A stretch of DNA of 64,000 nt from a virus (Duplodnaviria > Heunggongvirae > Uroviricota > Caudoviricetes). Numbering within the stretch: the first letter of the stretch is position 1; every line of letters begins with the position of its first letter. Of this stretch, positions 6,929 through 50,570 are shown piece by piece. A program made the translations under genes and the position numbers. The DNA lies in the IMG/VR virus record IMGVR_UViG_3300031993_000032. One strand, 5' to 3'. A model generated the notes under the pieces. It saw nothing but the letters and a program-made list of their open reading frames with translations. It searched no databases and had not been told where the DNA came from.

Positions 6929-7054
6929 CGGTCTGGGTAGGACTCGAACCTACATCCTGCGCCCGTATGGAGCCGTTGTCGCTGCTCTTTACTAGTGTAC
7001 AGCTAGTCTATTTTCCCGCCGAAGCCGTCGCCTCGACTTTTAAGCTACCAGACC
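6929..7054 (-). ncRNA. tRNA-like element, 126 nt: canonical T-arm (GTAGG-TTCGAGT-CCTAC), 7-bp acceptor stem (GGTCTGG/CCAGACC), plausible D-arm, no encoded CCA; anticodon region atypical and over-long
   Basis: Read by eye on the minus strand. Perfect 7-bp acceptor complement 126 nt apart. T-loop matches T-Psi-C-R-A. Confidence 0.4.
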
Positions 7055-20073: not shown

Positions 20074-21030
20074 TTATTTTTTGCTAGTGTAGATATAGTT
20101 TGCAGCCTTAATTGCAGCTCGACAAGCTTTTTCTACCATATTCTTATCGCTTCTGAGTGCCCTAGCCCATTCCTTCACGTAGGCTGCGCTCTGTTCGTCG
20201 CACTGTGGAGTATCAAATCCGTTATCGTGCATAATCGCACAAGAGCAAATTTCTGCTATCAATTCCTCGAAAGAATAAGAATTTTTGTCCATACGGTTCG
20301 CCAATTCCCTATTCAGTCGCTTGGAATGTCCAGTGCTATGTGCCAATTCGTGGAATACGTCAGAATAGTAGGCATTAGAATTTTTATAGCTATTCATAGG
20401 CGGTACGTGAATCTTATCCAAACTCGGAGAATATGCTGGAGTAGTATTCACGTGGTCAATGACCATACTCTCACGAGCTTGATAGTCCACAATAATCTTT
20501 TCTGCATCCGCAATCGGATTATTATGGTGTTCCTCGGCCTTTTTCGCAAACTTTAAAGGACAGTCTACCTCTCGGCCTACCTGCCATACAGTAGACGCTT
20601 TCAAGATAGGGAAATGCCCCTTAATAGGTTCACCATTTTCGTCGAGGCGAGGCTTTCCGTCCTCATCCTTCTTTGTGTACTCTACCATACTGTAGAAGTA
20701 CACTCGATGACCCTTGACCACTTTGCCGTTCTCGTCACGCTTGAAAGCTCCCCACACGGAACCATCCTTCACGTTCGTATGGTTGCGTTCGGCTACGCCG
20801 TTCACTGTGACGAACTCGCCTTCGGTGCATCCACCTAAAGCCAGCATCAGCGTGTTAAGGAACGAATATGACTTACCGTCGCTCTTGAGGAATCCGCTTT
20901 CGGTACGGTTCCACTGTTCACGCCACGGAACGCATCCCTTATCCAAACAAGCCAAAAACTTGTCCGTAATGTCCGCCATAATCTCGGCGGATACCTCGCT
21001 TGAGGTCTTTTTTGTTTTCGTGTATGCCAT
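20074..21030 (-). CDS. ardC: ArdC-like antirestriction protein (N-terminal ssDNA-binding domain + C-terminal HExxH zincin)
   Basis: CVPWREQW...SYSFLNTLML in the N-terminal domain. HELAHSTGH...NYI in the C-terminal domain. ACGGAGA RBS. The ORF-track TTG start trimmed to ATG. Confidence 0.7.
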   Translation of the reverse strand: MAYTKTKKTSSEVSAEIMADITDKFLACLDKGCVPWREQWNRTESGFLKSDGKSYSFLNTLMLALGGCTEGEFVTVNGVAERNHTNVKDGSVWGAFKRDENGKVVKGHRVYFYSMVEYTKKDEDGKPRLDENGEPIKGHFPILKASTVWQVGREVDCPLKFAKKAEEHHNNPIADAEKIIVDYQARESMVIDHVNTTPAYSPSLDKIHVPPMNSYKNSNAYYSDVFHELAHSTGHSKRLNRELANRMDKNSYSFEELIAEICSCAIMHDNGFDTPQCDEQSAAYVKEWARALRSDKNMVEKACRAAIKAANYIYTSKK

Positions 21031-21167
21031 AATCAATTCTCCGTTGAGTGGTGTTCCGTAAGCCCCATCGGCTTACATAATCTTAATAATCCCACGAGGC
21101 AGTCCCGTAGGCAGTGTGCCAGTCTGTCGCCGTATACGGCACACAATTGGGGCTTTCGCCCCTTTGT

Positions 21168-22530: not shown

Positions 22531-22700
22531 AATAGACTCCATTGGATAGTGGTGGTGGTGGTGCGGTTATGCCCTAACCGCTAGGTTGTAAGCCCCATTG
22601 GCTTACATAGCTATCATAGGACGGCGAGTCAGTCCCGTGCAAGTTCTGCCAGTCCGAAACGCCGTAAGGGGTTCTGTAGGGGAATAGGTTGCCGAGTGTT

Positions 22701-22745
22701 AGCCTAGGCTACCTAGGTTACCCTAGGCTAAGTTAGCCCAGGCTA
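22701..22745. repeat. tandem CCTAGG(C/T)TA repeats
   Basis: Read directly from the sequence. Confidence 0.6.
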
Positions 22746-22843
22746 AAACGCCGTAGGGCACAATTGGGCACTCTAATTTGGTTCTTGTTTACCAGGGGGC
22801 CCTGCGGGCCCACTCGTGACTCCGCACACTCGCTCCCAACCAG

Positions 22844-22892
22844 TCCAGACGAGTCCCAACCATCCCAACCATCCCAACCAGTCCAGACGAGT
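22844..22892. repeat. two 21-bp direct repeats TCCCAACCAGTCCAGACGAGT flanking CCCAACCAT x2 (iteron-like)
   Basis: Read directly from the sequence. Confidence 0.6.
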
Positions 22893-23064: not shown

Positions 23065-23118
23065 GGGGACTATTTTATACATGGTTCCCTTCTACCCTAC
23101 CCGTCATTTCCTATATGT

Positions 23119-23195
23119 GCCCATGTCCCGATTTTGAAAAATTTTGCCTGGGGCAAACTGGTTCCTATATAGGGAAATTTTTGCTATATTTTTAG
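23119..23195. repeat. about 75-bp direct repeat, copy A (copy B at 23783-23876); copy B has an inserted -35 region
   Basis: Read directly from the sequence. Confidence 0.6.
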
Positions 23196-23256
23196 ATACG
23201 ATAAAGAGAAATAGCATCCACCTTGTCCCCTATGATCGAATAGATGACAGCCTGAT

Positions 23257-23745
23257 ATGAATGTGAGATCGTCGATATATATTCTATCGTTTCTGCTAGC
23301 AGCAACCAGCATAATTCGCGGGATACGAGAACGGTTTCGGTTTGCCGTACGGAACAGTTCTGGTGCCGGACAAATAGACGTACGCCATTACATAGAAATT
23401 AGTCGTTTGGACCGGATGTATTTTATAATACGGAACTGTACTGGAGAATGCTACATACATCCGACGTCGCTATACATTCCGTTCGTTCCGGGGATAGACC
23501 GCGCTCTAGGCAAGATCGGTAGCCAGCTTCGGTTTATCTACAGTGAAGAGATGGACGGATTTCATATATACTTGACGACGTTGAGAGTTAACGGATGCCC
23601 CGAAGACCGTTCGAACATAACTGAGTTCTGTAAGAGACACGGTATACGCAGACGTCGAGTCGAAGAAATAATGGTCAGCATGCAGCGCAGATATGTACAA
23701 TGCTTGGTTGAGCGTGGATTCATCCCTAGCGACGCTACTTTTTGA
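23257..23745 (+). CDS. membrane-anchored protein, paralog family member 1 (N-terminal TM + basic patch)
   Basis: ORF track. GC-rich. No clear RBS. Confidence 0.45.
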   Translation: MNVRSSIYILSFLLAATSIIRGIRERFRFAVRNSSGAGQIDVRHYIEISRLDRMYFIIRNCTGECYIHPTSLYIPFVPGIDRALGKIGSQLRFIYSEEMDGFHIYLTTLRVNGCPEDRSNITEFCKRHGIRRRRVEEIMVSMQRRYVQCLVERGFIPSDATF

Positions 23746-23782
23746 TAGAGACCGATACTCGGTCGGCCTTTTCCCATGGAAG

Positions 23783-23876
23783 CCCATGCCCCGATTTTGA
23801 AAAATTTTGCCTGGGGTGCAAAATGGTTCATATATAGGGGAAATTTGCTGTTATTTGGTCATTTTGCTATATTTGG
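23783..23876. repeat. about 75-bp direct repeat copy B, carrying the promoter TTGCTG-N17-TATATT-N9-ATG for gene 23883
   Basis: Read directly from the sequence. Confidence 0.6.
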
Positions 23877-23882
23877 GGCACA

Positions 23883-24308
23883 ATGGACAGAATTACTGGG
23901 TACATATATCCTTTATTGGCTTTTGGGATAGCCGGTATAGGTGCATGGCGATCCATAGGGGATCGGATGCGTAATTCTCGCCGTACTGACATAAAGGGGA
24001 TATTCGACAAGGGGAATCTCCGTCGTGGTGATCTGGTGCCCTTACGGTTCGAGATGTGGCGGGTAGGGATGAAGTTCCGTCACGGGAAGTGGCGGATGAG
24101 GACTGAGGACTACTATACGGAGACTCGGCTTTACTTGCCGTATGCGGTATACAGGGCTATTGGTAGAGTGAATATGCAGTCCATATTCCTATCGACTTGC
24201 GTACTGTACGTGAGCGACTACTGGATATCGATAACGGACTCGTTGCCTACGAAGGCTATCGACATGGTGAGCGGCGGCATAGTGGCGGAGCTAGTATCTA
24301 GTCCTTAA
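23883..24308 (+). CDS. membrane-anchored protein, paralog family member 2
   Basis: ORF track. Promoter 23845-23873 with ATG 9 nt after the -10. Confidence 0.5.
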   Translation: MDRITGYIYPLLAFGIAGIGAWRSIGDRMRNSRRTDIKGIFDKGNLRRGDLVPLRFEMWRVGMKFRHGKWRMRTEDYYTETRLYLPYAVYRAIGRVNMQSIFLSTCVLYVSDYWISITDSLPTKAIDMVSGGIVAELVSSP

Positions 24309-24356
24309 ATCCATGTATAAATGTATAGGAACATATAAATAAAATAAATTTGAAAC

Positions 24357-25837
24357 TATATAAACTTACTTATGAATTGAAGTTAGTAGGATTTCTTCAG
24401 TTCTAAGAAAGAGTTTAGATGCCCTGAAGACGCTAAATCCTACACTAAGTGTCTTCGGGGCATTTCCTATTATATGATTACGACCGCCCAGAAAATAATG
24501 CTTATCGTAGACAAGAAGACTGCAAGTACGTTGAATCGTGCATGCGGTTGTGCTCGCTACGCATACAACTGGGCTAGGGACACCTGGTTTGCCAAGAAGG
24601 CTGCTGGCCATAAATCGGTGACGTGCGCGGAACTACGCAAAGAGTTCAACGAACAAAAGACTGATTGGATGTACGAGAGTCCCAAAGGCTCTATGGACCA
24701 AGCTATTAAGAACTTCGTTCTCGCCAAGAAACGGCATTACGAGAATCTTGAACTGTTCGGATTTCCCAAGCGTAAGAAATACAAGTCTAAGCGGTCATTC
24801 TACATAGAGAACGACAAGGCGAGGATAGTCGATCCTACTCGTGTCAAGTTGCCGTTAATCAAGCTTCCAGTCAGACTGGCGGAGCCAGTGCGGCTAGAAT
24901 GCCTATCTGGTAAGATAAACAACTTCGTTGTATCTAAGGGAAGCAACGACCGTTGGTACATCTCGATTTCCTATACTTACGATGACACTAATAGTTTGTA
25001 TGGAACTGGTGAGAATGGCCTTGTCGGTATAGACATAGGAGTTAAGACGCTGATGCAGTTATCGACAGGGGAATGCGTCGCCAATGAGCATATCAACAAG
25101 ACGCATTGCAAGCGACTTAGACGATATCAGAGGATGATGTCCCGCCGTAAGTATAATTCTACGCATTACAAGGACATCAAGAAGACTTTCAACAAGCAGA
25201 ATGCTTATATCAAGAACTTCAGAAAGGACTTGATACACAAGGCGACGACAGAGATTGTCAAGCACAATATGGTTGTCGCCATAGAGGACTTGAACGTCAA
25301 GGGAATGATGTCCAATCATAAGTTGGCGTCGGCGATTTCGGACTGCGGATTCGGCATGATCCGTAGGTTCCTTGAATACAAAAGTGCCAAGTACGGAACA
25401 TTACTTTTGAAGGTGAACCGATGGTTCCCATCCAGCAAAACTTGTTCCGGGTGTGGACATACGAAAGAAAAACTTTCATTGTCCGAACGAGAGTTCATCT
25501 GTGAGGAATGCGGACTGGTTATCGACCGAGATACTAACGCCGCAATCAATATCCTTGCAGAAGCCTTGTTCAATGAACTATATAAGAGATTCAATACCGA
25601 CATTGCCCGTCGGAAATTCACGCCAGCGGACTTGGTAGCTCTGGCCTCATCCCTTTCGGGATCTGGTGAACCTACCGAGGTCGATGCTCATTGCTTACTT
25701 ACCAGAGATGGTAGGGCGGCTATGGTGGACGATTTCTTCAATCGTCTATGGAATCAAGTTGCTATCGCAACCGTAAATCGCTATATTTAAGTCATAGACA
25801 ATTCCGTCTATACTTTTATATACATTTTATGAGGCAG
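24357..25837 (+). mobile_element. IS200/IS605-family element carrying only tnpB (copy 1); the left-end hairpin co-varies with copy 3
   Basis: Ends mapped by aligning this copy to the one at 56125-57591. About 90 percent protein identity between the two tnpB genes. Confidence 0.65.
24474..25790 (+). CDS. tnpB: TnpB (OrfB_IS605) RNA-guided nuclease-like protein, 438 aa
   Basis: RuvC motifs and a C-terminal CxxC...CxxC zinc finger (CSGCGH...CEECG...DRDTNAAINI). Confidence 0.85.
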   Translation: MITTAQKIMLIVDKKTASTLNRACGCARYAYNWARDTWFAKKAAGHKSVTCAELRKEFNEQKTDWMYESPKGSMDQAIKNFVLAKKRHYENLELFGFPKRKKYKSKRSFYIENDKARIVDPTRVKLPLIKLPVRLAEPVRLECLSGKINNFVVSKGSNDRWYISISYTYDDTNSLYGTGENGLVGIDIGVKTLMQLSTGECVANEHINKTHCKRLRRYQRMMSRRKYNSTHYKDIKKTFNKQNAYIKNFRKDLIHKATTEIVKHNMVVAIEDLNVKGMMSNHKLASAISDCGFGMIRRFLEYKSAKYGTLLLKVNRWFPSSKTCSGCGHTKEKLSLSEREFICEECGLVIDRDTNAAINILAEALFNELYKRFNTDIARRKFTPADLVALASSLSGSGEPTEVDAHCLLTRDGRAAMVDDFFNRLWNQVAIATVNRYI

Positions 25838-25845
25838 TACGTCCG

Positions 25846-26343
25846 GTGAGGCTGTTGATACCGATAATAGCGTTCTTGCTGTCCGGCATAGGGATATTCC
25901 GTTCCATACGTAGACGTGTGAGGTTCGTCATGAATCCGGGCTACAGGGGCTGGATCGACACCGACAGCATACCGCCACATAGGCTTGACGCCATGTACTT
26001 CTGCGTGGAGTACCTCGGAGTGAAGCACTACACGTTCACGAGGATGTACATGCCGAGGTGGATAGGGGACGTGTACATGGACAAGGTACGGTTCCGCATA
26101 AGGGACAACTACCGTACGGAGCTGAAGGGAGGCCGGATGTACGTGGAGTACGACGTTCCGAGGTGCGTGACGGTAGAGTGCAACGGCTACACGATGATCC
26201 GCGAGGAGCACCAGCTCGACACGTTCCTGAGGAAGAGCGGGGTACGGCAGCAGACCTTGATAGCGGTGATGAACGACTACAGGCGTACCATGTACCGTGA
26301 GCTGGTGAAGGACGGCATGATGAAGGAGAGCGACCTCAAGTGA
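25846..26343 (+). CDS. membrane-anchored protein, paralog 3 (GTG start immediately after the IS right end)
   Basis: ORF track. The GAGG in the IS terminal sequence lies 10 nt upstream of the GTG. Confidence 0.5.
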   Translation: MRLLIPIIAFLLSGIGIFRSIRRRVRFVMNPGYRGWIDTDSIPPHRLDAMYFCVEYLGVKHYTFTRMYMPRWIGDVYMDKVRFRIRDNYRTELKGGRMYVEYDVPRCVTVECNGYTMIREEHQLDTFLRKSGVRQQTLIAVMNDYRRTMYRELVKDGMMKESDLK

Positions 26344-26798
26344 AAAGATTTCTTTACATAGTGTACGGGCTGTTTGCTGCGGGTGCTGTACGGAAGTTCT
26401 GGAAGGACGTCGGTAAGCACCGGGAGTTCAAGGTGATGTGCAACCGGTACGACATGCGGAGCAGCTGGTTCAATGTGAAGCTGGTGTACGTGAGGGACAC
26501 TCTGATAGGGAGCAGCCGGATCGACGGCGGCAACGTGAAGCTTCGGCACTACATCGTGAGCGGGTACTTCCGTCGGTTCCGCTGCCGTGGTGCGAGCAGC
26601 AACGTCGACGTGATGTGCGAGCTAAGGAAGGCGATGGACATATATATCAAGAGGCACGGCGGACTTGCGAAGGGGATCGACTACAGTCTGGCACCGATGC
26701 CCGCCTACGTGGGCGGCGTGGAGTACCGTGGGAACAAGGGTCTTGAGGACTTCGACCTGGTCAAGGAAGCCTTCTACGGCATACCGAGGGAACTATGA
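26340..26798 (+). CDS. membrane-anchored protein, paralog 4
   Basis: ORF track. Start overlaps the upstream stop. Confidence 0.5.
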   Translation: MKRFLYIVYGLFAAGAVRKFWKDVGKHREFKVMCNRYDMRSSWFNVKLVYVRDTLIGSSRIDGGNVKLRHYIVSGYFRRFRCRGASSNVDVMCELRKAMDIYIKRHGGLAKGIDYSLAPMPAYVGGVEYRGNKGLEDFDLVKEAFYGIPREL

Positions 26799-27262
26799 GG
26801 TCGTTGCCGTGGCTGTTCTACATACTGGCCGGGGTTCTGGCGATAAGGGACTTCCTTGGGAAGGTGACCTCGCACATGAAGTTCCACACGCTTCTGAGGT
26901 CGTTCGGCAACGGCTACAGCAGCGTGGTGGCCGAGATCCATTACTGCGTGACTTACGACTACGTTGACGGATCGGGTCTGACCAAGCACTGCATAGAGAC
27001 CGTGAGGAGCGATCGTCAAAGGCTGTTCCGCATAAAGGGAGACTGGAGTCCGGAGACCGTGCTGCAGCTGGTCGAGTGCGAGCTTGTCCGACGGATCAAG
27101 CCCCGGTTCGACCTAGTCCATTCCGTGAGGGTACAACAGGCGACAAACATATCGGAATGGCATACACCGGTTTCCAAGGTGAAGTACGTGTCCGATGCGG
27201 TGAGGGACGAGATGCTGCGTATCGAGTTCGTGTTCATGGGGCTGCCGAGGAATGTCGGATGA
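26795..27262 (+). CDS. membrane-anchored protein, paralog 5
   Basis: ORF track. Start overlaps the upstream stop. Confidence 0.5.
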   Translation: MRSLPWLFYILAGVLAIRDFLGKVTSHMKFHTLLRSFGNGYSSVVAEIHYCVTYDYVDGSGLTKHCIETVRSDRQRLFRIKGDWSPETVLQLVECELVRRIKPRFDLVHSVRVQQATNISEWHTPVSKVKYVSDAVRDEMLRIEFVFMGLPRNVG

Positions 27263-27738
27263 GGTACTGGAAGGAGATAGCTTACTGTATCGCCGGGATA
27301 CTTGCGGTATGGCGGATGTCGAAGCTGAGCACGATCGACTTCATGCGCACGTACCACTGGAGAGGCGGAGTATGGTGGTTCCGGGTTGCGCTGATGTTCC
27401 GCAGTGGGGACGGAGGATTCCTGTACCGAATAAGGAAGTTCCGTGTGGCTCACATAATGTCTGCTGTCGGCGCATCCAACCACATCAAGGCGATGCTGCC
27501 CAAGGAACTGATCGAGGGTATCGACCGCAGCAGCGTATGGATCTGTATGGCCGATACCAACCAGGATCTGACCATGGACGACCTATACGACTTCTACGGT
27601 CTCGGCGACAAGGAAGCGTTCATGGCGAGTCTTGACTCACACGAAAGGTGGCTAGTCAACGAGGTCGGCAAGGCGTTCGACGAGCTTCCGGAGAAAATCG
27701 AGGTCAAGCAGCCGATACACCTTTTCCACAGGAACTAG
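27259..27738 (+). CDS. membrane-anchored protein, paralog 6
   Basis: ORF 27076..27738 trimmed to Met62 (ATGA overlap with the upstream gene). Confidence 0.5.
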   Translation: MRYWKEIAYCIAGILAVWRMSKLSTIDFMRTYHWRGGVWWFRVALMFRSGDGGFLYRIRKFRVAHIMSAVGASNHIKAMLPKELIEGIDRSSVWICMADTNQDLTMDDLYDFYGLGDKEAFMASLDSHERWLVNEVGKAFDELPEKIEVKQPIHLFHRN

Positions 27739-27740
27739 AA

Positions 27741-28268
27741 ATGATTAGGGCGATAGGTTTCGTATTTTATTCCGTATTTGCCGTGCTTGCCTTCAAGCGA
27801 ATGGTTAGGAACATCCGACAGTTCCGCAGCAACTACATATCCAAGCGTACATGCAGTCCGCACGTGGTCAAGGTACACGTCCGTCTTCTGGTGACCGTGG
27901 CAAGGACTGCGTACATACTTAGCGAGCGAACGATCCTCATACAGGCGTTCCCCAAGATCGCAAACTTCAATATCGTGATCGACGATGAGTTCCGCAAGAA
28001 GACGTCGAGGTTCGTTCTGGAGAAGCTCTGCCGGATATACAACGTTCGGTTCGGAGACCACTACGAGTTCCGTTGCTACATTTCCGCATATACAAGGAAG
28101 TGCGAGGACGACACTGCCGTGATTGCGACCGCACTTAAGGCCATGCACCACACGAAGGAGGCTTTCTTGCTCAAGTACCCTAAGTACCGTGCGGATATCG
28201 AGAGGATCGTGGACTGGTTCGAACACGAGTCGCTTTCCGACCCGGTGACGATGGAGAAGATGCCATGA
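27741..28268 (+). CDS. membrane-anchored protein, paralog 7
   Basis: ORF 27648..28268 trimmed to Met32. Confidence 0.5.
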   Translation: MIRAIGFVFYSVFAVLAFKRMVRNIRQFRSNYISKRTCSPHVVKVHVRLLVTVARTAYILSERTILIQAFPKIANFNIVIDDEFRKKTSRFVLEKLCRIYNVRFGDHYEFRCYISAYTRKCEDDTAVIATALKAMHHTKEAFLLKYPKYRADIERIVDWFEHESLSDPVTMEKMP

Positions 28269-28789
28269 AGCTCTTGAACCTATTCTATGCAGTGTGTGCG
28301 CTCCGTGCGGCATGCCGTGTAATTTCCCACATCAAGGGGAACCATGCACGCATGGTCAAGGCGTCGCACAAGGCAGTCCATATGAATGCGCACATGTTCG
28401 TGTACGCAGAGTACTACGGATACCATATCCTTGGGCACAAGGACATTTCCATAACGAGCTATCTTACACGGCATGCGTATCATTTCGGCAAGGACGAACT
28501 CATCAAGTTCAACATGGACTGGCTATGGCAGCAGATCAACTTGACAAAGCCGTGCTATAATTCGTCACGCTACACGACAGCCGTATATATCGACGGCGAT
28601 CCGGAAGGCGTACGGTGCGAAAAGCAGTTTTACAATGCCGTCAGGCGTAGGTGGCCGTACCAGTCAGCCGATGCGATGGTTCGCCATTATCCGGAACTGA
28701 AGACGGAGATTAATCAGATCATGTACTGGTTCAACCGTTTCGACCCGGTATCCAAATCGCTACGGATGTGCGATCTTGATAGGCTATAA
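28265..28789 (+). CDS. membrane-anchored protein, paralog 8
   Basis: ORF track. Bidirectional terminator at 28793-28822. Confidence 0.5.
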   Translation: MKLLNLFYAVCALRAACRVISHIKGNHARMVKASHKAVHMNAHMFVYAEYYGYHILGHKDISITSYLTRHAYHFGKDELIKFNMDWLWQQINLTKPCYNSSRYTTAVYIDGDPEGVRCEKQFYNAVRRRWPYQSADAMVRHYPELKTEINQIMYWFNRFDPVSKSLRMCDLDRL

Positions 28790-28843
28790 GAAAAAGGCGA
28801 CCGATTTCTCGGTCGTCTTTTGGTATGTCGGCAAAGAAACCTC

Positions 28844-34222: not shown

Positions 34223-35848
34223 TTATTCCCAAGGGAGCTTGCGGTCAGACTTCGGCTGAGCCTTCTTGACGTTGTTTACAACGGTCTTGAGCTGTTCAGC
34301 GGTCATCTTGGGTGCAGCCTTCGGTTCTTCGGCCTTGGGAGCTTCGGCAGCCTTCGGTGCTTCGTTCACGACAGTACACTGGCACGGTTCTGCCTTGTTG
34401 GAACCTACTCCAGCAAGCTTGGCACCGAACATGGAGCTGAGCACGTTCGGAAGATTGATGCCAAGGGATTCGGTGAGACCGTTGGACATCTTGGTAAGAG
34501 TGCTGATAAGGTTGCCAGTGAGATTTTCTGGGCCGTGTTCGCCATACATGACGAGGCTTCCGATCTTTTCCCACGGCTTGGCGAGAGATTCTGCCATGTG
34601 CGGCAACTGTTCGAAGTACTTTTCGAGAGCCTTGAGCTGCATTTCTTGACGAGCAGCTTCGCCGTACTTCTGCATTGCTTCTGCCTTCTGGTCGAGGGCA
34701 GCGGCTTCTGCAAGACCCTTTGCCTTGATGGCATCAGCCTCAGCTTCACCACGAGCACGGATAGCTTCAGCGTCGTTGAATGCACGAGTCTTTTCGGCTT
34801 CGGAAATCTGCTTGATGGCTTCTGCTTCTTGAGTCTTTGCGAAGAGCTTTGCTTCGGCATCCTTGTTCTGGCGGTAGAGGTCAGCTTCAGAGTTCTGGAT
34901 CTGGGCTTGACGGTTAGCTTCGGCCTTCTTCTGGATTTCAGCTTCGAGTTCTTTCTGCTTCACAGTGACCATGCGTTCACGGATTTCGGCTTCCTTTTCT
35001 TGGCGAGCGCATTCCGCTTCTGCAGCCTTGATATTAATGGTCTTCTGCTGTTCTTGCTTCTGGATTTCGTATGCGGCGTCTGCTTCGGCCTTTTTGGTGT
35101 CGGCTTGACGCTTAAGGTCAGCCTTCTTCACTTCGAGGTCATTCTGCTTCTGGGCGATTTCGAGGTCAGCAGCGACCTTAGCATCGTTGGCTTCCTTTGC
35201 AGCCTTGGATTCGGCGATGCTAATATCACGGTCGGAATTAGCTTTAGAGATCGCCGCAGCCTTACGAATAGCGGATGTCTTGTCTACACCGAGGTCTTTG
35301 ATGACGCCCTTGTCGTCAACAAAGTTCTGGATGTTGAAAGTCTGGATTTCCAAGCCGAGTTTCTTGAGGTCTGGGTCAGCATTTTCACGAACGAGATCAG
35401 ACACACCCTTACGGTCATTGACAAGCTTGACGAGTTCCATCTGGCCGACAATTTCACGCATGTTGCCTTCCAGGATGTCCTTGATGTTGCTTGCAATGTT
35501 TTCTGTAGAGTTATTCAAGAAGTTCTGGGCAGATGCTTCCAAAAGTTTTTCATCATCAGACACCTTCACTGTCACGACGGCATCGACGTCAACGTTGATG
35601 TAGTCGCTTGTCGGAATTGCCTTGGTCTTCACGTCGATGGGGAAGAGCTTCAAGCTAAGCTTGTCGGCTCGTTCCAAGAACGGAATCTTGAATCCGGCAT
35701 GGCCGATGACGGTGCGGCGCTTGCGGAAACCGGAAATGATGATGACTTCGTCGGGTGCGGCCTTGATATAGGACACGCAGAAGAGGATAATGAGGAAGAG
35801 CACGACGACTGCAATTCCACCATAGAGCAGAATACTGGAAAGATCCAT
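34223..35848 (-). CDS. flotillin-like SPFH/band-7 protein (N-terminal TM, SPFH domain, long EA/KA-rich coiled-coil)
   Basis: Domain architecture recognised by eye. AAGGAAA RBS. Confidence 0.75.
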   Translation of the reverse strand: MDLSSILLYGGIAVVVLFLIILFCVSYIKAAPDEVIIISGFRKRRTVIGHAGFKIPFLERADKLSLKLFPIDVKTKAIPTSDYINVDVDAVVTVKVSDDEKLLEASAQNFLNNSTENIASNIKDILEGNMREIVGQMELVKLVNDRKGVSDLVRENADPDLKKLGLEIQTFNIQNFVDDKGVIKDLGVDKTSAIRKAAAISKANSDRDISIAESKAAKEANDAKVAADLEIAQKQNDLEVKKADLKRQADTKKAEADAAYEIQKQEQQKTINIKAAEAECARQEKEAEIRERMVTVKQKELEAEIQKKAEANRQAQIQNSEADLYRQNKDAEAKLFAKTQEAEAIKQISEAEKTRAFNDAEAIRARGEAEADAIKAKGLAEAAALDQKAEAMQKYGEAARQEMQLKALEKYFEQLPHMAESLAKPWEKIGSLVMYGEHGPENLTGNLISTLTKMSNGLTESLGINLPNVLSSMFGAKLAGVGSNKAEPCQCTVVNEAPKAAEAPKAEEPKAAPKMTAEQLKTVVNNVKKAQPKSDRKLPWE

Positions 35849-35863
35849 GTTACTGTTTCCTTG

Positions 35864-36274
35864 TTATTGTTGATTGTTTCTGATGTCTACATCGCCAGAC
35901 ACGGTACTCACCGATCCAGCGACGCTACCTCTGACATCGACATCCCCAGAGACTGCGGATACCGAGCCACTTACATCGCCGTGGATTTCGATGTCGCCAG
36001 ACGTCGTACTGACGTTGCCGACATTTCCGTTCACGACAATGTTCGGAAGATTTTGTACGGACTTGAGATTGCCAACGATGTTGATCCCAGCGATACGGCT
36101 ACCGCATTCGATGCGCTGACCGCCGATGATCACCACATTGTCCGATTCTAATGTGATATCACCTTGTACGTGGAAATCTTCGGAATCGTTCACGGAGACC
36201 ATTACGTTTCCGTTGGCGTCCTTGAGCGTGACGGAACTTTTACCGTCAAGTCCTTTTGCAATTTGTACATTCAT
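35864..36274 (-). CDS. bactofilin-like (DUF583-type beta-helical GxV repeat) protein
   Basis: Repeats GDVSGSVSAVSGDVDVRGSVAGSV. TAATG overlap with the upstream gene. Confidence 0.55.
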   Translation of the reverse strand: MNVQIAKGLDGKSSVTLKDANGNVMVSVNDSEDFHVQGDITLESDNVVIIGGQRIECGSRIAGINIVGNLKSVQNLPNIVVNGNVGNVSTTSGDIEIHGDVSGSVSAVSGDVDVRGSVAGSVSTVSGDVDIRNNQQ

Positions 36275-37065
36275 TACCAGTCCCTCACTGAACCGTTAAG
36301 CCATTCATTTGGCGCAACTACGAAGAATACTACTGCGATGATAATAATTAACGAGAAGCATATCCAGAAATACAGTACGCCATGTTCTCTGATGTAGTAA
36401 TCGATCGCACCGTCAAGTGGAACTCCGTCCGCCCACATCGAATCGTTGATTCGGTGGTTGACCGCATTCGTGTACATCGTTCCGGTGTAAGTCAAGTTAC
36501 GACCGTAGTACACGTAGCGTTGGCGATTCGACATCAATGCGTCCCATAGCCCAGTCTTCTTGATGGGAATCGTTTCGATATAATGTTCCCTAGGCAACGC
36601 AGGGAATTCCGAATAATAGAACCGCTTGCCAAGGAAGTCCACATGGTTGACACTGAAATGGTCAGTCTTCATGACGTCCCACGTCCAGTATGTCTCCGTA
36701 TGGCAATGACGGTTCTTTCCCTCGCCAGAGCAGACAGTACGATGGTGCTTTCTGTATTCCTCCAAGTCACGAGTAAGTGTCATGTAGTGTCCGATACCGT
36801 CGTCGGTAACGAACTCGACTGCGCTTACAGTTCCATATGCCAGCATGTGGCCAGCATCTGTTTTGAAGGCATAGTTAAATTGCGTTGAGTCGGAGACATG
36901 TACTGCGTGATAGAACTTCACGTTGTACTCGTCCTGGGCTTGTGCGATTTTGTTGGCAATGATGCAGCCCAAGATAATGGCCAGCAACACGCCGACAAGC
37001 GACACGAAAAACTCACGGACGGTCAGATCCCAGCTACCGCCATCAAATAGCGTACGAGAACTCAT
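36274..37065 (-). CDS. membrane protein (N- and C-terminal TM, Cys-containing extracytoplasmic domain), LemA partner
   Basis: ORF track. TAATG coupling to lemA. Confidence 0.55.
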   Translation of the reverse strand: MSSRTLFDGGSWDLTVREFFVSLVGVLLAIILGCIIANKIAQAQDEYNVKFYHAVHVSDSTQFNYAFKTDAGHMLAYGTVSAVEFVTDDGIGHYMTLTRDLEEYRKHHRTVCSGEGKNRHCHTETYWTWDVMKTDHFSVNHVDFLGKRFYYSEFPALPREHYIETIPIKKTGLWDALMSNRQRYVYYGRNLTYTGTMYTNAVNHRINDSMWADGVPLDGAIDYYIREHGVLYFWICFSLIIIIAVVFFVVAPNEWLNGSVRDW

Positions 37066-37640
37066 TAGTCTTTCTGATCCTTTTTCTTCTTCAAGAGACC
37101 AGTAGGCGCATCAACCGGAGCATTTGCAAACTCCAAGAAGTCGTATTTCTGTGCAACGTAGCCAAGGATAGACAAGCAGAAACGAGCCGGGAATCCACGC
37201 ACGTAAGCATTGTAGTTGCCTACCATGGTGTTGTAGTCGTTTCTGTGCGAAGCGATACGATTTTCGGTCATGGCGAGTTCCGTCATGTACCGGTCGTAAT
37301 TCTCGATAGAACGGAGCTGCGGATAGCGTTCGACCACGCCCTGGATGTATGCGGACGCATTCACGTTGCCCTTGCCGCCTTCCGGTGTACGAGCCTTGGA
37401 GAGTTCGACGATCACTTGCGCTTCGTGCTCGTCATAGCTCATGACAGCTTCGGCCAAGTTGACCAAGAGTCCGGCACGGCGGTTGTATTCCGCATTGAGG
37501 TTGGAATTAGCACGTTCGACGAGCTGTTCCATCTGGATAGCACGGTTCTGGTAGTTCTGCACCATGAAGATGGATGCGACGATAGTGAGTGCAATGACGA
37601 CGACAAATCCGATTGCGCCGAGGATGATTGCTTTTGCCAT
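37065..37640 (-). CDS. lemA: LemA-family protein
   Basis: N-terminal TM, then YN..A..L.......VIVELSKARTPEGG.....TENRIA..R.DYN....YN...R.FP. AAAGGAAAA RBS. Confidence 0.75.
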   Translation of the reverse strand: MAKAIILGAIGFVVVIALTIVASIFMVQNYQNRAIQMEQLVERANSNLNAEYNRRAGLLVNLAEAVMSYDEHEAQVIVELSKARTPEGGKGNVNASAYIQGVVERYPQLRSIENYDRYMTELAMTENRIASHRNDYNTMVGNYNAYVRGFPARFCLSILGYVAQKYDFLEFANAPVDAPTGLLKKKKDQKD

Positions 37641-37658: not shown

Positions 37659-38915
37659 TTATTTGACAGTTTCAATTTTGTAAATAAGTGTGCTGTTACC
37701 CATCTTGATTTCAAGATGGTTAGGGAATGCCGCAGCAATCTTTGCGTATTCAGCTTCCAAGAGTTCGCTGGCCTTGATGCCGAATTCCTTGCCTTGAGCA
37801 ATCCCCATTGACTGCACGGTATCATTGATAGCCTTGCGGTCTGGTTCATTATCCTTCAGATAGCAAGCAGCCGGAAGCTGTTCCAGCCAAGCCCTTTCGC
37901 AATAATAGTCTCTCATGAGAGCAAGCAACAGCTCATACTCACCAGAAACGAAGTTCACCAGAGACGTCCAGTACTTGCCATCGTCCGGATTCCACGCATA
38001 CACGTTACCGTATGAACGGAGCCAGTTCCACAGCTTTCGTTCATCACGTGTAGGAACAAACGCTTCCAGATTGATTTCACTGGCAGCAGTGAAGCAGATT
38101 GCCGGGAACAAGTTATCCTTGGTCAGCAATTCGTCGCATTCGATCAGCTGACACTTGACTTCGTACGGATCCAGACCGTCAAATCCTTCGATATGCCGAA
38201 GCAAGCCGTTCCAAATCAACCTATCAATGAAGTCCGGAGTATCGGCATAGTCCTTCAGTTTCAAGAATTCGGCACGGATACGTTCATTTGACACGTTTTC
38301 CAGTCGTTCTGCATTTGCACTCATGGCGCATGCAGTCTTGTTTTCAATGCTATATTCGAAGTTCACGGCGAAACGAGCGCCACGGATCATGCGGAGCGCA
38401 TCTTCTTCGAATCGCTTGTCAGGATCGCCGACAGCACGGATAATCTTGTTCTTGATATCTTCGACACCGCCATGGTAGTCGATAATTTCGCCGTCCCACG
38501 CAAGGCCGAGCGCATTGATGGTAAAGTCACGTCGAGCTGTATCTTCTTCGAAAGACTCGGTAAGCGTAATAGAGTCTGGATGACGACCGTCGCTGTATTC
38601 ACCGTCAGTACGGAAATGGGTAACCTCGAAATAGATGCCATCCCACCAGACAAGAATGGTGCCGTGTTTTTCGCCGTTGTTGTCGCATGTCTTGAAGTAT
38701 GTCTTCAAGTTATCAAGCGGCATTGACGTGGCGATATCGATGTCATGGATATCCAGCTCGTCGGTCTGGCCGAGCTGGTAACGAACAATGTCACGGACAC
38801 AGCCGCCCACGAGATAAGCCTCAGACTTGTAGGGGCCCAACTCGGTAATCTTCTTGGCTAATGCCAGACCAGCCTTCAACTGATCGTTGTTAATGTCATC
38901 CAAATTGATTTTCAT
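37659..38915 (-). CDS. cca: tRNA nucleotidyltransferase (CCA-adding enzyme / poly(A) polymerase family, head+neck only, no HD domain)
   Basis: GGCVRD, DIHDIDIAT, TARRDFTINAL and FEEDALRMIRGARFA motifs. Leaderless promoter 38923-38951. Confidence 0.8.
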   Translation of the reverse strand: MKINLDDINNDQLKAGLALAKKITELGPYKSEAYLVGGCVRDIVRYQLGQTDELDIHDIDIATSMPLDNLKTYFKTCDNNGEKHGTILVWWDGIYFEVTHFRTDGEYSDGRHPDSITLTESFEEDTARRDFTINALGLAWDGEIIDYHGGVEDIKNKIIRAVGDPDKRFEEDALRMIRGARFAVNFEYSIENKTACAMSANAERLENVSNERIRAEFLKLKDYADTPDFIDRLIWNGLLRHIEGFDGLDPYEVKCQLIECDELLTKDNLFPAICFTAASEINLEAFVPTRDERKLWNWLRSYGNVYAWNPDDGKYWTSLVNFVSGEYELLLALMRDYYCERAWLEQLPAACYLKDNEPDRKAINDTVQSMGIAQGKEFGIKASELLEAEYAKIAAAFPNHLEIKMGNSTLIYKIETVK

Positions 38916-38922
38916 GTTTTAG

Positions 38923-38951
38923 AATATAGTAATAACACTCATATCCGTCAA
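38923..38951 (-). promoter_or_regulatory. sigma-70-type promoter TTGACG-N17-TATATT with the ATG 7 nt downstream
   Basis: Read directly from the sequence. Confidence 0.6.
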
Positions 38952-38986
38952 GCGACTTTTGATATAATTTATTAAATATGCGAGAA

Positions 38987-39163
38987 AAAATCTACATGGC
39001 AATCTACATAGCGTTCGTCGTAGGCGCTTGCCATCACGTGTACGCAATAATGAAGATCCGCTGGAAGGCGGCACTCACTCGCATGCAAAGGGGAATTACT
39101 CCCGCAGTTGGATACATCCTTGAAGCGATACACAAGTGGTTGAATTCAAAATAATGGAAAAGG
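38987..39163 (+). CDS. small 58-aa hydrophobic ORF from a divergent extended -10 promoter (TGATATAAT)
   Basis: Not in the ORF track. No SD. Near-leaderless. Confidence 0.25.
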
Positions 39164-39180
39164 CTGGTCAATGACCAGCC
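39150..39180. terminator. bidirectional terminator GGCTGGTCAATGACCAGCC
   Basis: Read directly from the sequence. Confidence 0.55.
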
Positions 39181-39185
39181 TTTCG

Positions 39186-39794
39186 TTAACCGTTGCGTTC
39201 CGTCGGATCAACACCGGGAACCGGACACAGCGAACCAGGGATAGTGTGCCAAGTTCCGTGCTGGATGCCGTCGGCGACAACGGTAAACTTTTCAGTCGGC
39301 TTGTTCTCGTTCGATACGAGGAACTCCAACTTACCGTCAACGTTCTTGACGTCGAAGATACGGTAATGAGCGTTGCCACGGATAGTACGGTTCAGCGGCG
39401 ACGCCTTGATGATAAAGGTCTTCTTGTTACGGTAACGGATGAACAGCGACGAACCGTGATGTAGTCCGATGAGGTAGTCTTCATCTTCGGATTCGCTTGC
39501 CTTTGCGTCGTCCTTTTCGATTTCCTTGATACCGTTAGCCAGAGATACATGAAGCTGGTTATCGTTCGGATCCACATAGCCAAAAGTAATCTTGTGCGGA
39601 TTTTCCGTAGACACATAGATACCGACTACGGTCACTTCGGTAGGTTCCGGATATGAATAGAACGTACCGTACAAGCGATACTTGAGTTCCTTCGAGCCCT
39701 TCGTTGCAGCTATGTCAAGAGTGTACTTATGGGCAACACCATGCACCGGGCATTCGATGTGCGGCAAGTCGATAGTTTGTGCTAAATTAATCAT
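39186..39794 (-). CDS. hypothetical protein (202 aa)
   Basis: ORF 39186..39884 trimmed to Met31 (ATGA overlap with the HD gene). Terminator at 39150-39180. Confidence 0.5.
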   Translation of the reverse strand: MINLAQTIDLPHIECPVHGVAHKYTLDIAATKGSKELKYRLYGTFYSYPEPTEVTVVGIYVSTENPHKITFGYVDPNDNQLHVSLANGIKEIEKDDAKASESEDEDYLIGLHHGSSLFIRYRNKKTFIIKASPLNRTIRGNAHYRIFDVKNVDGKLEFLVSNENKPTEKFTVVADGIQHGTWHTIPGSLCPVPGVDPTERNG

Positions 39795-40573
39795 ATGGAA
39801 CCTTTGTCCTTCATGCACCTCAGTGCAGCTTTTAGAATTGAGTCTTTCTTGAGACAGCCGCCGTTGATCTGAATCTTGTGGCAAGTCTCATACAGTTCAA
39901 ACTTCTTGTTGGCGTCAGCGATTTTCTCGACTTCCGGATTAGCAATCATGTCGTTCCATGTCACCAGATGGCTAGGCATCGGATGCGACATGCAGTAGAC
40001 CACGATAGGGTTAGAATTAATCTCTTCCATGTAGTCCATCGCCGGATTGCCTTCGGCATCGATGGTGCTGTTGGAATCAGCGACGGCAAGCTTGAACACA
40101 CGGTTGATCCACGGGTGCGACACGAATGACCAGCAAGCGAACTTCTGTTTCGCTTTCGGCAAGGCGTTCGCTTGCGTATGGTTCTCTACCATCCACAGCA
40201 CGATATCCTTTTCGTGCTTCTTGAATCCGAAACTGTCAAGTACAGCTTCGGCAAGCGGCAATCCGAGCTTTTCGTGACCGGCCATGTTCTTGCCGTTGTT
40301 CTTCGCTAGCGCATCCTTCTTGCCGATATCGTGCAGCAGAGCCGCAGTGACATCCAAGTAGTCGTGCTTGTCCTTGAGGATATTCTCGATGACCATCTTG
40401 GTATGAACCCACACGTCACCTTCATGGTGATAATTAACGTGTTCGCATCCGGCCATGTACTGATCGATGAAACCGAACAGAGGATTATACTTCCGTTCAC
40501 ATTCCAGCCGATCCACCACATCTGGTGCGGTCAATATGCTATGCACATTATTGTAGGTTTCCTCGATCGTCAT
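39791..40573 (-). CDS. HD-domain phosphohydrolase
   Basis: H..HHEGDVWVHT...LLHDIGK motif. AAGAGGA RBS. Confidence 0.7.
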   Translation of the reverse strand: MTIEETYNNVHSILTAPDVVDRLECERKYNPLFGFIDQYMAGCEHVNYHHEGDVWVHTKMVIENILKDKHDYLDVTAALLHDIGKKDALAKNNGKNMAGHEKLGLPLAEAVLDSFGFKKHEKDIVLWMVENHTQANALPKAKQKFACWSFVSHPWINRVFKLAVADSNSTIDAEGNPAMDYMEEINSNPIVVYCMSHPMPSHLVTWNDMIANPEVEKIADANKKFELYETCHKIQINGGCLKKDSILKAALRCMKDKGSI

Positions 40574-40742
40574 TGTTCCTCTTTAATATCTCACGCAATT
40601 TATGCGGCCACTGACTGATTGTTTTTTCAATCCGTTTGAGCCTTCTTTCGTTTCTAATATAGCAAATGATCTTAAATATGGCAAATCCATACACCGATAC
40701 AATAGCCAAAATCACCAGAATTAATAGAATGTTCCACACCAT
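40548..40742 (-). CDS. small 64-aa TM protein
   Basis: ORF track. ATG 7 nt after a TATATT -10 (40750-40755). Overlaps the second promoter 40656-40684. Confidence 0.35.
   Translation of the reverse strand: MVWNILLILVILAIVSVYGFAIFKIICYIRNERRLKRIEKTISQWPHKLREILKRNNDDRGNLQ
40656..40684 (-). promoter_or_regulatory. sigma-70-type promoter TTGCCA-N17-TATATT upstream of the HD gene
   Basis: Read directly from the sequence. Confidence 0.5.
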
Positions 40743-40868
40743 GGCGCGAAATATAGTAAAGATTTATAACAAACTAACTTATATTTTGTTTATTTTTGCC
40801 ACGGGTTGCCAAACATACACTCATTTGCTATATTACATGGAAACTTAATCTTTAACAAGGACTATTCA

Positions 40869-42215
40869 ATGGCAGTCAAAGTCTCCGAAAAAACGATTGC
40901 GAGGGCAAAGCAGCCTTGTCGCACCGTTTGCAAGCGTCGTGCTGTCGGCGTAACGGCAAACAAGCAGTATCAGCGCAAGAACAAAGACCAGTGGTTCGTC
41001 ACGCATCTCACCAAGACCGATACTTACAAGTTCGGCATGTGTCAAGCGGTCTTCCACAAGCATCCGAACGAACGTGCCTACTGGGAATTCAAGCTCCGTT
41101 CTGATGGCGTCGACCTGACTCCGTACTACGACGAAATCAACAAGGAACTCGATCACCTTTGCACACTCAAGTTTACTGAATGGGAACTCGAAGGCATTCG
41201 CCGTGTTATGCCTTGGCTGTCCGACGACTTCATCGAATGGCTTGCCGACTTCCAGCTCAAGCGCAAGTACATCCACGTCGACTATGATGCTACTCGCAAC
41301 GGCGGTCTCCACATCTGGGCTGAAGGCCCCGCAATCCAAGTTACCTGGTTTGAAATCTATGTTCTGAAGATTATCCAGAACCTCTTCTTCGACGATCTCG
41401 AAATCGACTGGGAAGAATCCAAGAAGACACTCAACGAATCTATCGCAAAGTGGAACGCAGCTCTCCGCCGTGGCGTCAAGTTCACGATCTCTGACTTCGG
41501 TGTCCGCCGTTCCGTGTCCGACGAATGGAACGAATACATGGTTCAGACCATGATCGACTTCTGCCCCGCTTTTGTGGGCACTTCCAACGTGTACCTTGCC
41601 ATCAAGCTAGGCTGCAAGGCTATTGGTACTTTTGCCCATGAAATGTACGCACTGTATCAAGGCATTGACGACATTCCGCTTCACCTTGTGCAGAAGAAAG
41701 TTCTCGAAGACTGGTCTGACGAATTCCGTGGCGACCTCGGTATTGCGCTTTCCGACAACTTTGGCTTCAATGCATTCTTGCGTGATTTCGATAAGTATTA
41801 CGCCAAGCTGTTCGACGGTTGCCGTCACGACTCTGGCGACCCGTATGTCTGGGGCGAAATGCTTATCGCTCACTACACCAAGAACGGCATCAATTCCAAG
41901 AGCAAGGTAGGCTGCTGGTCTGACAGCCTCAACTGCGACCAGTCCATCGCTATCGCCGAACGCTTCCACACTCGTATCAACGTGGCATTCGGTATCGGCG
42001 GCTTCCTCGCTTGCAAGGTGCTCCGCTTCAAGGGTGGCATCAAGCGTGACGCTCTCCGCATGATCATGAAGCTTGTCATGTCCAACGGCAAGTACGCCGT
42101 GAAGCTCTCCGACTCTCCGGGCAAGGTCAACTGTCCTGACCCGAAGGTGATTGAACGTGCGAAGGACGCATACCATTACGAACCAATTGCAGAAAACAAG
42201 GACGCTTTGGATTAA
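40869..42215 (+). CDS. pncB: nicotinate phosphoribosyltransferase
   Basis: Collinear matches to PncB: DTYKFGMCQAVFH, FGVRRSVS...FVGTSNVYLA, GIALSDNFGFNAFLRDF, CRHDSGDPYVWGE, VKLSDSPGKVNCPD. Trimmed to Met22 after AAGGA. Confidence 0.85.
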   Translation: MAVKVSEKTIARAKQPCRTVCKRRAVGVTANKQYQRKNKDQWFVTHLTKTDTYKFGMCQAVFHKHPNERAYWEFKLRSDGVDLTPYYDEINKELDHLCTLKFTEWELEGIRRVMPWLSDDFIEWLADFQLKRKYIHVDYDATRNGGLHIWAEGPAIQVTWFEIYVLKIIQNLFFDDLEIDWEESKKTLNESIAKWNAALRRGVKFTISDFGVRRSVSDEWNEYMVQTMIDFCPAFVGTSNVYLAIKLGCKAIGTFAHEMYALYQGIDDIPLHLVQKKVLEDWSDEFRGDLGIALSDNFGFNAFLRDFDKYYAKLFDGCRHDSGDPYVWGEMLIAHYTKNGINSKSKVGCWSDSLNCDQSIAIAERFHTRINVAFGIGGFLACKVLRFKGGIKRDALRMIMKLVMSNGKYAVKLSDSPGKVNCPDPKVIERAKDAYHYEPIAENKDALD

Positions 42216-50359: not shown

Positions 50360-50570
50360 ACTTGACAATATAGCAATTAAGAGTAAAATTGTCTACGATA
50401 AAAGCGAAATCCATCGCATTTGCGATGGATTGTCCTTTATGCTTGATTTTCCGTGAGTATTTCTTCTTGTCAAGAACCAGCCGAGTGCGAAGTGTCGCAC
50501 CGTTGCCAGTCCCGGCAATCCTTGCGGCCCGTTGGGTTCTCGTTTCCTTGATGTGTTCTATATTGCTCAT
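50277..50570 (-). CDS. small basic protein (97 aa) whose reading frame runs through the thg1 promoter and the first 90 nt of thg1
   Basis: ORF track. Promoter TTGACA-N16-TATATT at 50580-50607 with the ATG 9 nt downstream. Confidence 0.4.
   Translation of the reverse strand: MSNIEHIKETRTQRAARIAGTGNGATLRTRLVLDKKKYSRKIKHKGQSIANAMDFAFIVDNFTLNCYIVKYGKNTIRYYEAWRPYQGIRTPVYRTQN
50367..50395 (-). promoter_or_regulatory. sigma-70-type promoter TAGACA-N17-TATATT, leaderless
   Basis: Read directly from the sequence. Confidence 0.55.

Follow-up and report, generated by a model that had tools for sequence, protein, structure and literature searches.

A conserved accessory operon of small, mostly basic proteins with hydrophobic N termini, interrupted by a tnpB element, in a clade of huge phages

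Superinfection-exclusion proteins such as T4 Imm and Sp, P22 SieA, and lactococcal Sie2009 are small, membrane-anchored, nonessential, and fast-evolving, and they are expressed apart from structural genes. Spanins have an o-spanin lipoprotein partner, neighbors belonging to a lysis cassette, and a periplasmic coiled coil. In the phi29 protein p16.7, a transmembrane helix at the N terminus precedes a C-terminal domain that lies in the cytoplasm. This integral membrane protein binds both DNA and terminal protein, and p16.7 and p1 are early membrane proteins involved in anchoring phage DNA replication (PMC4974454). Here we analyze eight plus-strand open reading frames (ORFs) at positions 23257-28789 of a 64,000-nucleotide (nt) stretch, hereafter the window, of the IMG/VR virus record IMGVR_UViG_3300031993_000032 (Caudoviricetes). 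The ORFs form an array in which two (A1 and A2) precede and six (B1 to B6) follow an IS605-family tnpB element, an arrangement proposed in a preliminary description of the sequence and borne out by the coordinates and by Pfam and PHROG matches. The array is a conserved accessory operon of a huge-phage clade, encoding lineage-restricted, small (140-180 amino acids [aa]), mostly basic proteins. We tentatively propose that these are binding proteins, tethered to the membrane and facing the cytoplasm, with a role in phage-host or phage-phage conflict.

Like phi29 p16.7 and p1, the array proteins are small phage proteins that would be attached to the membrane, and their inferred basic, cytoplasm-facing domain fits the same logic; however, they have no sequence or fold similarity to the phi29 proteins and their domain is alpha/beta, so that only a general architecture is held in common. 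The phi29 proteins are, moreover, products of single genes, whereas the array comprises eight or nine genes in four groups that evolve fast, are individually dispensable, and occur in a sub-clade only. The resemblance to exclusion proteins lies in the small size, putative anchoring, accessory nature, and fast evolution of the array proteins, but no homology was found in PHROG or Pfam, and the known exclusion proteins are encoded by single genes. Sp-type exclusion proteins function in the periplasm, in contrast to the cytoplasmic domains predicted from the charge bias of the array proteins. An N-terminal anchor followed by ~100-150 aa is also seen in spanins and the T4 RI antiholin. The spanin-like function first suggested for the array is nevertheless not upheld, since there is no lipobox partner, no lysis gene nearby, and no coiled coil but an alpha/beta domain, with a cytoplasmic charge bias that predicts the opposite topology.

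The genes of the array, assigned to the sequence groups F1 to F6 described below, are as follows; GC is the G+C fraction, and dN/dS is the ratio of nonsynonymous to synonymous substitution rates.

23257-23745, plus strand: A1, F1 group, 162 aa; GC 0.46; lies between the two promoter-like repeats
23883-24308, plus strand: A2, F1 group, shortened at the C terminus to 141 aa; GC 0.50; dN/dS within 0.24-0.48
25846-26343, plus strand: B1, F1 group, 165 aa, GTG start; orthologs P0001 and P0010; dN/dS 0.32
26340-26798, plus strand: B2, F2 group, 152 aa; orthologs P0007, P0014, P0017, and P0024; dN/dS 0.48
26795-27262, plus strand: B3, F3 group, 155 aa; orthologs P0005, P0008, and P0016; dN/dS 0.47
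27259-27738, plus strand: B4, F4 group, 159 aa; orthologs P0003 (76%), P0011, and P0013, of equal length; dN/dS 0.39
27741-28268, plus strand: B5, F5 group, 175 aa; orthologs P0004 and P0009; dN/dS 0.24
28265-28789, plus strand: B6, F6 group, 174 aa; orthologue P0006; dN/dS 0.26

The ORFs are genuine genes. In every one of the eight, the annotated frame outscores the other five frames on codon usage; its score is above zero for A2 and B1-B6 but below zero for A1, which a simple codon-usage gene caller did not pick. Full-length orthologs of the same size exist elsewhere for A1 and every B gene. Comparison with orthologs from the related loci L007 and L008 gave dN/dS of 0.24-0.48 for A2 and B1-B6, indicating purifying selection; A1 yields no ratio because it differs from its ortholog at only four positions, none of them synonymous. 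The B4 start is an internal ATG of a longer ORF (27076-27738), and this ATG, at 27259, overlaps the B3 stop. The six genes after tnpB had been described as overlapping one another, which holds for four of the five B1-B6 junctions (4 nt each) but not for the fifth, a 2-nt gap. All credible genes that the gene caller placed at 1 to ~22.5 kb and at 28.8-40.6 kb are on the minus strand, so the array is the sole plus-strand block in the first ~40 kb, in agreement with its earlier description as the only such block in the first half of the window.

The eight proteins and 68 nonredundant family members share an N terminus composed of methionine, one or two lysine or arginine residues (K/R), an uncharged apolar run, and a K/R-rich patch, as first reported for the eight. 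The uncharged run is 11-19 aa long in the window proteins and has a median of 16 aa over the 68 members, rather than the approximately 18 aa given initially. A strict six-frame scan of the window for this architecture recovered six of the eight array genes and only two shadow ORFs elsewhere, and it produced no match in 14 of the more distant phage loci; the pattern is far beyond chance. Relatives that seemed short at the N terminus proved to be gene-caller artifacts arising from GTG starts. Among the 68 members, the 15 aa C-terminal of the run contain on average 4.1 lysine plus arginine versus 0.84 aspartate plus glutamate, and the N-terminal side has ~1.4 K/R, an asymmetry that predicts an N-out/C-in topology by the positive-inside rule. 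The prediction of an N-terminal anchor and a cytoplasmic domain thus derives from apolarity, position, and the positive-inside rule. The isoelectric point of the globular domains is ~8.5-9.2, versus a median of 5.4 for the window proteome. Aligned orthologs of F2-F6 have an invariant tyrosine in the hydrophobic helix, and the aligned helices also contain, by our own reading, small-residue spacings.

Sequence comparison supports four groups: F1 (A1, A2, and B1), F2/F3 (B2 and B3), F4 (B4), and F5/F6 (B5 and B6). A1 and B1 are 29% identical over their full length (E 5e-11), and A2 matches B1 with an E of ~1e-3. Profile comparison with hhalign linked F2 to F3 with 97-98% probability and F5 to F6 with 86-91%, and these were the only links remaining after removal of the first 32 residues (89% for F5 with F6); the weaker links of F2/F3 to F5/F6 (~75%) and to F4 (31-52%) vanished, and alignment of F1 with the other groups is confined to the N-terminal 29 residues. 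Since only two profile links outlive removal of the N terminus, the eight genes are not shown to be paralogs by sequence. The preliminary description had the proteins as eight paralogs diverging completely beyond the N terminus; relationship does extend through the domain within F1, F2/F3, and F5/F6, contrary to complete divergence, but no domain-level sequence link joins the four groups. A single superfamily comprising all eight genes is plausible. AlphaFold2 confidently modeled B1 with a predicted local distance difference test (pLDDT) score of 88.9 and a predicted template modeling (pTM) score of 0.77, as a helix (4-29) followed by an alpha/beta domain, and B3 with a pLDDT of 81 and a pTM of 0.63, as a helix (4-37), a long beta-hairpin, a helix, a strand, and a helix. 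Both models have their elements in the order helix, beta-hairpin, helix, strand(s), helix. In F1, invariance or near-invariance is confined to proline, glycine, and tyrosine residues, so there is no catalytic-looking motif. One homolog, P0015 (260 aa), has two tandem F1 domains behind a single N-terminal helix.

None of the eight proteins matched Pfam, PHROG, NCBIfam, or PADLOC, and the earlier failure to recognize a family therefore stands for every library tried. There was no sequence match in the PDB and no fold match for the predicted models, and no sequence or fold homology to a characterized superinfection-exclusion or anti-defense family was found. Megablast of the region against GenBank phages gave no match, and scans of IMG/VR with B1, the neighboring ParB-like protein, and a 279-aa protein found nothing; the F1 alignment is too variable for pattern scanning. 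In a word-indexed protein search, B1 returned its own cluster only and an F1 profile returned seven proteins, all of the same family. An exhaustive HMMER search with a concatenated query of seven paralogs detected 28 clusters in 1.84 billion representative proteins, indicating that the family is small. No homologs turned up outside the phage-type contigs examined, including in bacterial genomes. The family is new to the databases, although phage accessory multigene families that encode small anchored proteins are of a familiar kind.

Several ENA, JGI, and Logan samples contain contigs of the same genome at 99.98-100% identity. A search with its flotillin gene brought up viral contigs as long as 415 kb from IMG/VR, and one of these (L039; 348 kb) contains the array, consistent with the phage origin assumed at the outset and identifying the phage as a huge one. 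An array with the same gene order fills the corresponding slot in six or more related lineages (L006, L007/L008, L009, L014/L015, and L039; partial in L011 and L012/L013). The slot lies between the ArdC-side genes and the ParB-like gene, the order is two to four F1 genes followed by F2, F3, F4, F5, and F6, and most of the arrays are free of TnpB. The order holds in lineages with array proteins at only 25-60% identity. F2-F6 are mostly single copy, with one of each in several lineages; L006 and L039 lack F6, L014 lacks F4 and F6, and L006 has an F2 fragment. A 146-aa multi-transmembrane YdjM-like protein is encoded between the F4 and F5 genes of L006 (12049-12489). In 24 more distant huge-phage loci, whose flotillins are 40-70% identical, no array was found within 10 kb of the flotillin gene; the array is restricted to a sub-clade of huge phages.

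Against L008, the array proteins show 51-75% aa identity, versus 81-97% for flanking genes, and nonsynonymous substitutions per site (dN) are 0.16-0.46 in the array versus 0.015-0.09 in six measurable flanking genes, mostly a 3- to 10-fold difference. The faster dN, together with changes in copy number and exchange of a 5′ cassette (see below), substantiates the initial view of a diversifying family. An ArdC-like gene near the array evolves similarly fast, its product being 63% identical to the L007 ortholog. This protein (20074-21036, minus strand) has ArdcN and zincin-like metallopeptidase domains, and its synonymous sites are saturated relative to L007; neighboring proteins are 89-97% identical. 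Base composition had been given as 55-58% GC in the array against about 45% elsewhere; GC is indeed 0.55-0.57 in B1-B4 but lower in A1, A2, and B5-B6 (0.50-0.52 in the last two), and the remainder of the window averages ~0.485, with 1-kb values of 0.43-0.54. The GC fraction at third codon positions (GC3) is 0.75-0.84 in B1-B4 versus a genome mean of 0.60, and it reaches 0.81 in the neighboring ParB-like gene; arrays of the relatives have GC3 of 0.70-0.87 versus ~0.45-0.72 in their flanks. High GC3 and a gene order kept at 25-60% protein identity indicate that the array is old and resident rather than a recent import.

The features of the insertion that separates A2 from B1 are as follows.

24359-25837, plus strand: IS200/IS605-family tnpB-only element, ~1.48 kb, with ends defined from a second copy
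24474-25790, plus strand: TnpB ORF, 438 aa, with Pfam and PHROG matches
25838-25849, plus strand: remnant of the ancestral A2, the last three codons and stop (TAC GTC CGG TGA), to the right of the element and overlapping the B1 GTG start

The TnpB protein contains OrfB_IS605 (RuvC-like), Cas12f1-like TNB (zinc ribbon), and HTH_OrfB domains (PF01385, 1.5e-17; PF07282, 3.5e-24; PF12323, 2e-5; PHROG 506, 2e-94). The GC of the element is 0.46. A second copy on the minus strand (57591-56125) is 85% identical in nucleotide sequence over 1,483 nt and 90% identical in aa sequence, with similarity dropping sharply at both ends, and the common ends define both boundaries of the element. The OrfB_IS605 and Cas12f1-like domains, the second copy with the same ends, and the empty sites in relatives (L006-L009) resemble described tnpB-only members of the IS200/IS605 family; the insert differs in that no close bacterial relative was found. 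The tnpB ORF is the only one in the element, and no TnpA (Y1 HUH transposase) is encoded there, which makes the element a non-autonomous, tnpB-only one. No Rfam family for an omega RNA or reRNA reached the gathering score at the element, no dedicated model having been built. The best bacterial TnpB relatives are 30-46% identical and taxonomically scattered (46% over a partial 189 residues; 39% near full length), and an inference of the host from TnpB was dropped for this reason.

A2 aligns with a 177-aa ortholog (L007:8058-8591) to about residue 136, where an AT-rich stretch and then the element follow, and it lacks the C-terminal ~40 residues, comprising conserved helices, of that ortholog. 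The remnant to the right of the element corresponds to the ...TACGTGCGGTGAGG junction between the A2 and B1 orthologs of L007/L008. The presence of the A2 end codons on the right side indicates that A2 lost its 3′ end, and its coupling to B1, to the element and a deletion. Thus the array was split between A2 and B1 as the preliminary description held, although that account was incomplete in missing the loss of the A2 3′ end. We considered the sequence TAAATTTG, left of the element, as a native B1 promoter but rejected it, because the orthologs show that B1 was originally coupled to A2 by a GTGA overlap. An unrelated TnpB element of L014 (24% aa identity) lies five codons into another array gene, and disruption of array genes by TnpB elements in both the window and L014 indicates that they are expendable one at a time. 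The window encodes three TnpB proteins (24474-25790, plus; 56160-57482, minus; 43512-45248, plus), the first two being 90% identical and the third a divergent 578-aa form with a long N-terminal extension. Further unrelated TnpB lineages are present in relatives (L013, L012, L014, and L036), with two TnpB within 9 kb of L013. Three unrelated TnpB lineages lie in or near arrays, but these genomes are full of TnpB and chance suffices to account for this; the idea that the array is an insertion sequence (IS) hotspot was rejected.

Noncoding features accompany both ends of the array.

22580-22850, strand not assigned: conserved noncoding element within the divergent intergenic region (715 nt) that precedes the array; a candidate for a structured RNA or cis-regulatory region
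23094-23191, plus strand: promoter/leader-like element, copy 1, directly upstream of A1
23764-23846, plus strand: promoter/leader-like element, copy 2, upstream of A2 and 87-91% identical to copy 1
28798-28815, strand not assigned: terminator-like GC-rich hairpin from a terminator scan (seven pairs, five of them GC, then a T-rich tail), between the array end and the convergent ParB-like gene

A promoter/leader-like element of ~75-100 nt precedes the first F1 gene in four lineages, with 86% (L009), 76% (L014), and 74% (L039) identity to the window, where its two copies bracket A1. Region 23160-23820, comprising A1 and its flanks, is ~99% identical to L007/L008, whereas identity elsewhere in the array is 76-82%; the mismatches are concentrated in the promoter-like repeats on either side. 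L009 has no A1, and the codon usage of A1 is atypical (GC3 0.48). A1 thus looks like a mobile cassette, apparently exchanged recently through recombination between the repeats. In L007/L008, A1 is followed by a 167-aa F1 gene that is missing from the window. The only window match to the Bacteroidota-type promoter pattern TTTG-N17-23-TAnnTTTG lies near copy 2 (23844-23875); with 1.19 matches expected by chance it is not significant and is unusable as evidence of host or timing. The upstream noncoding element retains 70-88% identity in L009, L006, and L014, lineages in which the array proteins next to it have diverged far more, and RNAalifold predicted 60 pairs, nine of them with compensatory changes. 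It had no Rfam match at E<=1 and may be a new structured RNA or regulatory region. A 50-nt hairpin-containing piece of it (22588-22637) recurs elsewhere in related genomes.

A membrane module is encoded on the minus strand 5 kb from the array (34223-37640), consisting of flotillin/SPFH (541 aa), a 136-aa protein, a phrog_3886 protein (263 aa), and LemA. Its flotillin is 40-80% identical in IMG/VR contigs of up to 415 kb (L039-L063), some of which keep LemA and the 263-aa gene. A CCA-adding enzyme, a second nucleotidyltransferase-like protein, NAPRTase, Thg1, and a sigma-70-type factor are encoded at 37659-42215, 49469-50368, and 58152-58892, and the window also encodes SpoVG and has isochorismatase and cytidylyltransferase domain matches elsewhere. 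These genes make up the set for NAD salvage and transfer RNA (tRNA) repair that is typical of very large phages. An Rfam tRNA call at 6929-7054 on the minus strand (37.9 bits) spans 126 nt, far above normal length, and may represent an intron-containing or degenerate tRNA; ARAGORN called none in the window.

Under the proposal of membrane-tethered conflict proteins, to which we give a probability of roughly 0.4, the hydrophobic helix would tether each protein to the host inner membrane with its globular domain in the cytoplasm. The operon would carry its own promoter/leader element, run divergently from its neighbors, and be translationally coupled, and each protein would bind rather than catalyze, for example neutralizing membrane-associated host defense factors or blocking superinfection. 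A conflict role at the inner face of the membrane would explain both fast evolution and individual dispensability, and we prefer it to a role in core machinery because of the fast evolution, patchy content, cassette exchange, sub-clade restriction, and a fast-evolving anti-restriction neighbor. Several observations tell against it. The Kyte-Doolittle 19-residue mean of the N-terminal stretch exceeds 1.6 only in B1 and B5 (two of eight), a crude Hessa-scale sum is positive for all eight N termini, and insertion of the helix into the membrane is a plausible prediction. The dN/dS is below 1 throughout, with no direct signal of positive selection. Early expression would follow only from map position and the nonsignificant promoter match, and PADLOC, PHROG, and Pfam searches returned no link between the array proteins and any defense or exclusion system. 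Finally, the conserved order, the mostly single-copy F2-F6, the 4-nt overlaps, and the helix tyrosine would equally fit the subunits of one complex. Such a complex is the main competing explanation, though a doubtful one: a hetero-oligomeric membrane-bound assembly with a core infection role, e.g., a platform tethering DNA replication or an infection compartment, possibly with the flotillin/LemA module. The phi29 proteins provide a precedent for membrane-anchored early proteins that organize replication (PMC4974454). Maintenance of the F2-F3-F4-F5-F6 order with single copies in several lineages, start/stop overlaps suggestive of coupled translation, the invariant tyrosine and small-residue spacings of the helices, the predicted basic cytoplasmic domains, and the nearby flotillin, LemA, and phrog_3886 cluster, which is conserved across huge phages, all suit a complex. 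Yet lineages persist without F4 and/or F6 or with IS-destroyed members, huge phages that keep the flotillin module lack the array, dN is far above that of core genes, and the alpha/beta fold is not the all-helical DNA-binding domain of p16.7, to which there is no sequence similarity. We regard as improbable the more elaborate possibility that a new fold family assembles through its hydrophobic helices into a hetero-oligomeric platform on the cytoplasmic face and, with the flotillin/LemA module, organizes a membrane-associated infection compartment.

The features of the helix that weaken the case for anchoring also bear on whether the proteins are soluble cytoplasmic factors, the N-terminal stretch not spanning the membrane but serving in oligomerization or partner packing. 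The uncharged runs of 11-19 aa are shorter than a textbook transmembrane helix, the 19-residue mean falls below 1.6 in six of the eight proteins, the B6 run contains an arginine, and in the AlphaFold2 models the N terminus is one continuous helix of 26-34 residues that extends into the basic segment. We nevertheless consider a soluble state unlikely, since the stretch is fully apolar rather than amphipathic, stands at the extreme N terminus of all ~60 homologs, and is always followed by 3-7 K/R, a classic anchor signature, and its 15-residue Kyte-Doolittle mean is 1.5-2.7. The reverse topology, with N-in/C-out anchors or secreted proteins acting in spanin- or antiholin-like lysis, receptor masking, or Sp-type exclusion, draws on the likeness to T4 Sp, RI, and i-spanins, which are small and have an N-terminal anchor. 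It is improbable given that the charge bias is strongly opposite (4.1 K/R after the helix versus ~1.4 before it), that our reading of the eight N termini and the alignments found no signal-peptidase or lipobox motif conserved among orthologs, that no endolysin, holin, or o-spanin came up in surveys of the flanking genes, and that the predicted domain is globular alpha/beta rather than a coiled coil. The recent moron origin of a GC-rich foreign island, raised in the preliminary description, and its variant of decaying, functionless duplicates would account for the elevated GC3 of B1-B4 relative to the genome, the poor codon scores of A1 and A2, and the shortening of A2. It is nonetheless highly improbable: GC3 and synteny are common to lineages at 25-60% protein identity, A2 and B1-B6 are under purifying selection, the ParB-like neighbor has an equally high GC3, and no homologs were found in bacterial genomes or elsewhere beyond the phage-type contigs examined. 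Overall, the original observation is confirmed in part, being mostly right in anatomy but needing correction in helix length, reach of the GC signal, degree of divergence, and the state of A2, and its interpretation is supported in part.

The locus shows clearly how tnpB elements can erode an accessory operon of a phage. If the array genes are merely accessory ORFans, the gain is a correct annotation with four new families, one pseudogene, and one IS; if the platform assembled from diversified paralogs were real, it would be a new kind of viral membrane-remodeling machinery. Most genes of huge phages are unnamed, and here eight or nine of them resolve into one conserved module with a common architecture. 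Structural and genetic work has a defined target in the array, whose proteins are tractable candidates for a new class of membrane-tethered effectors acting in conflict between phage and host.

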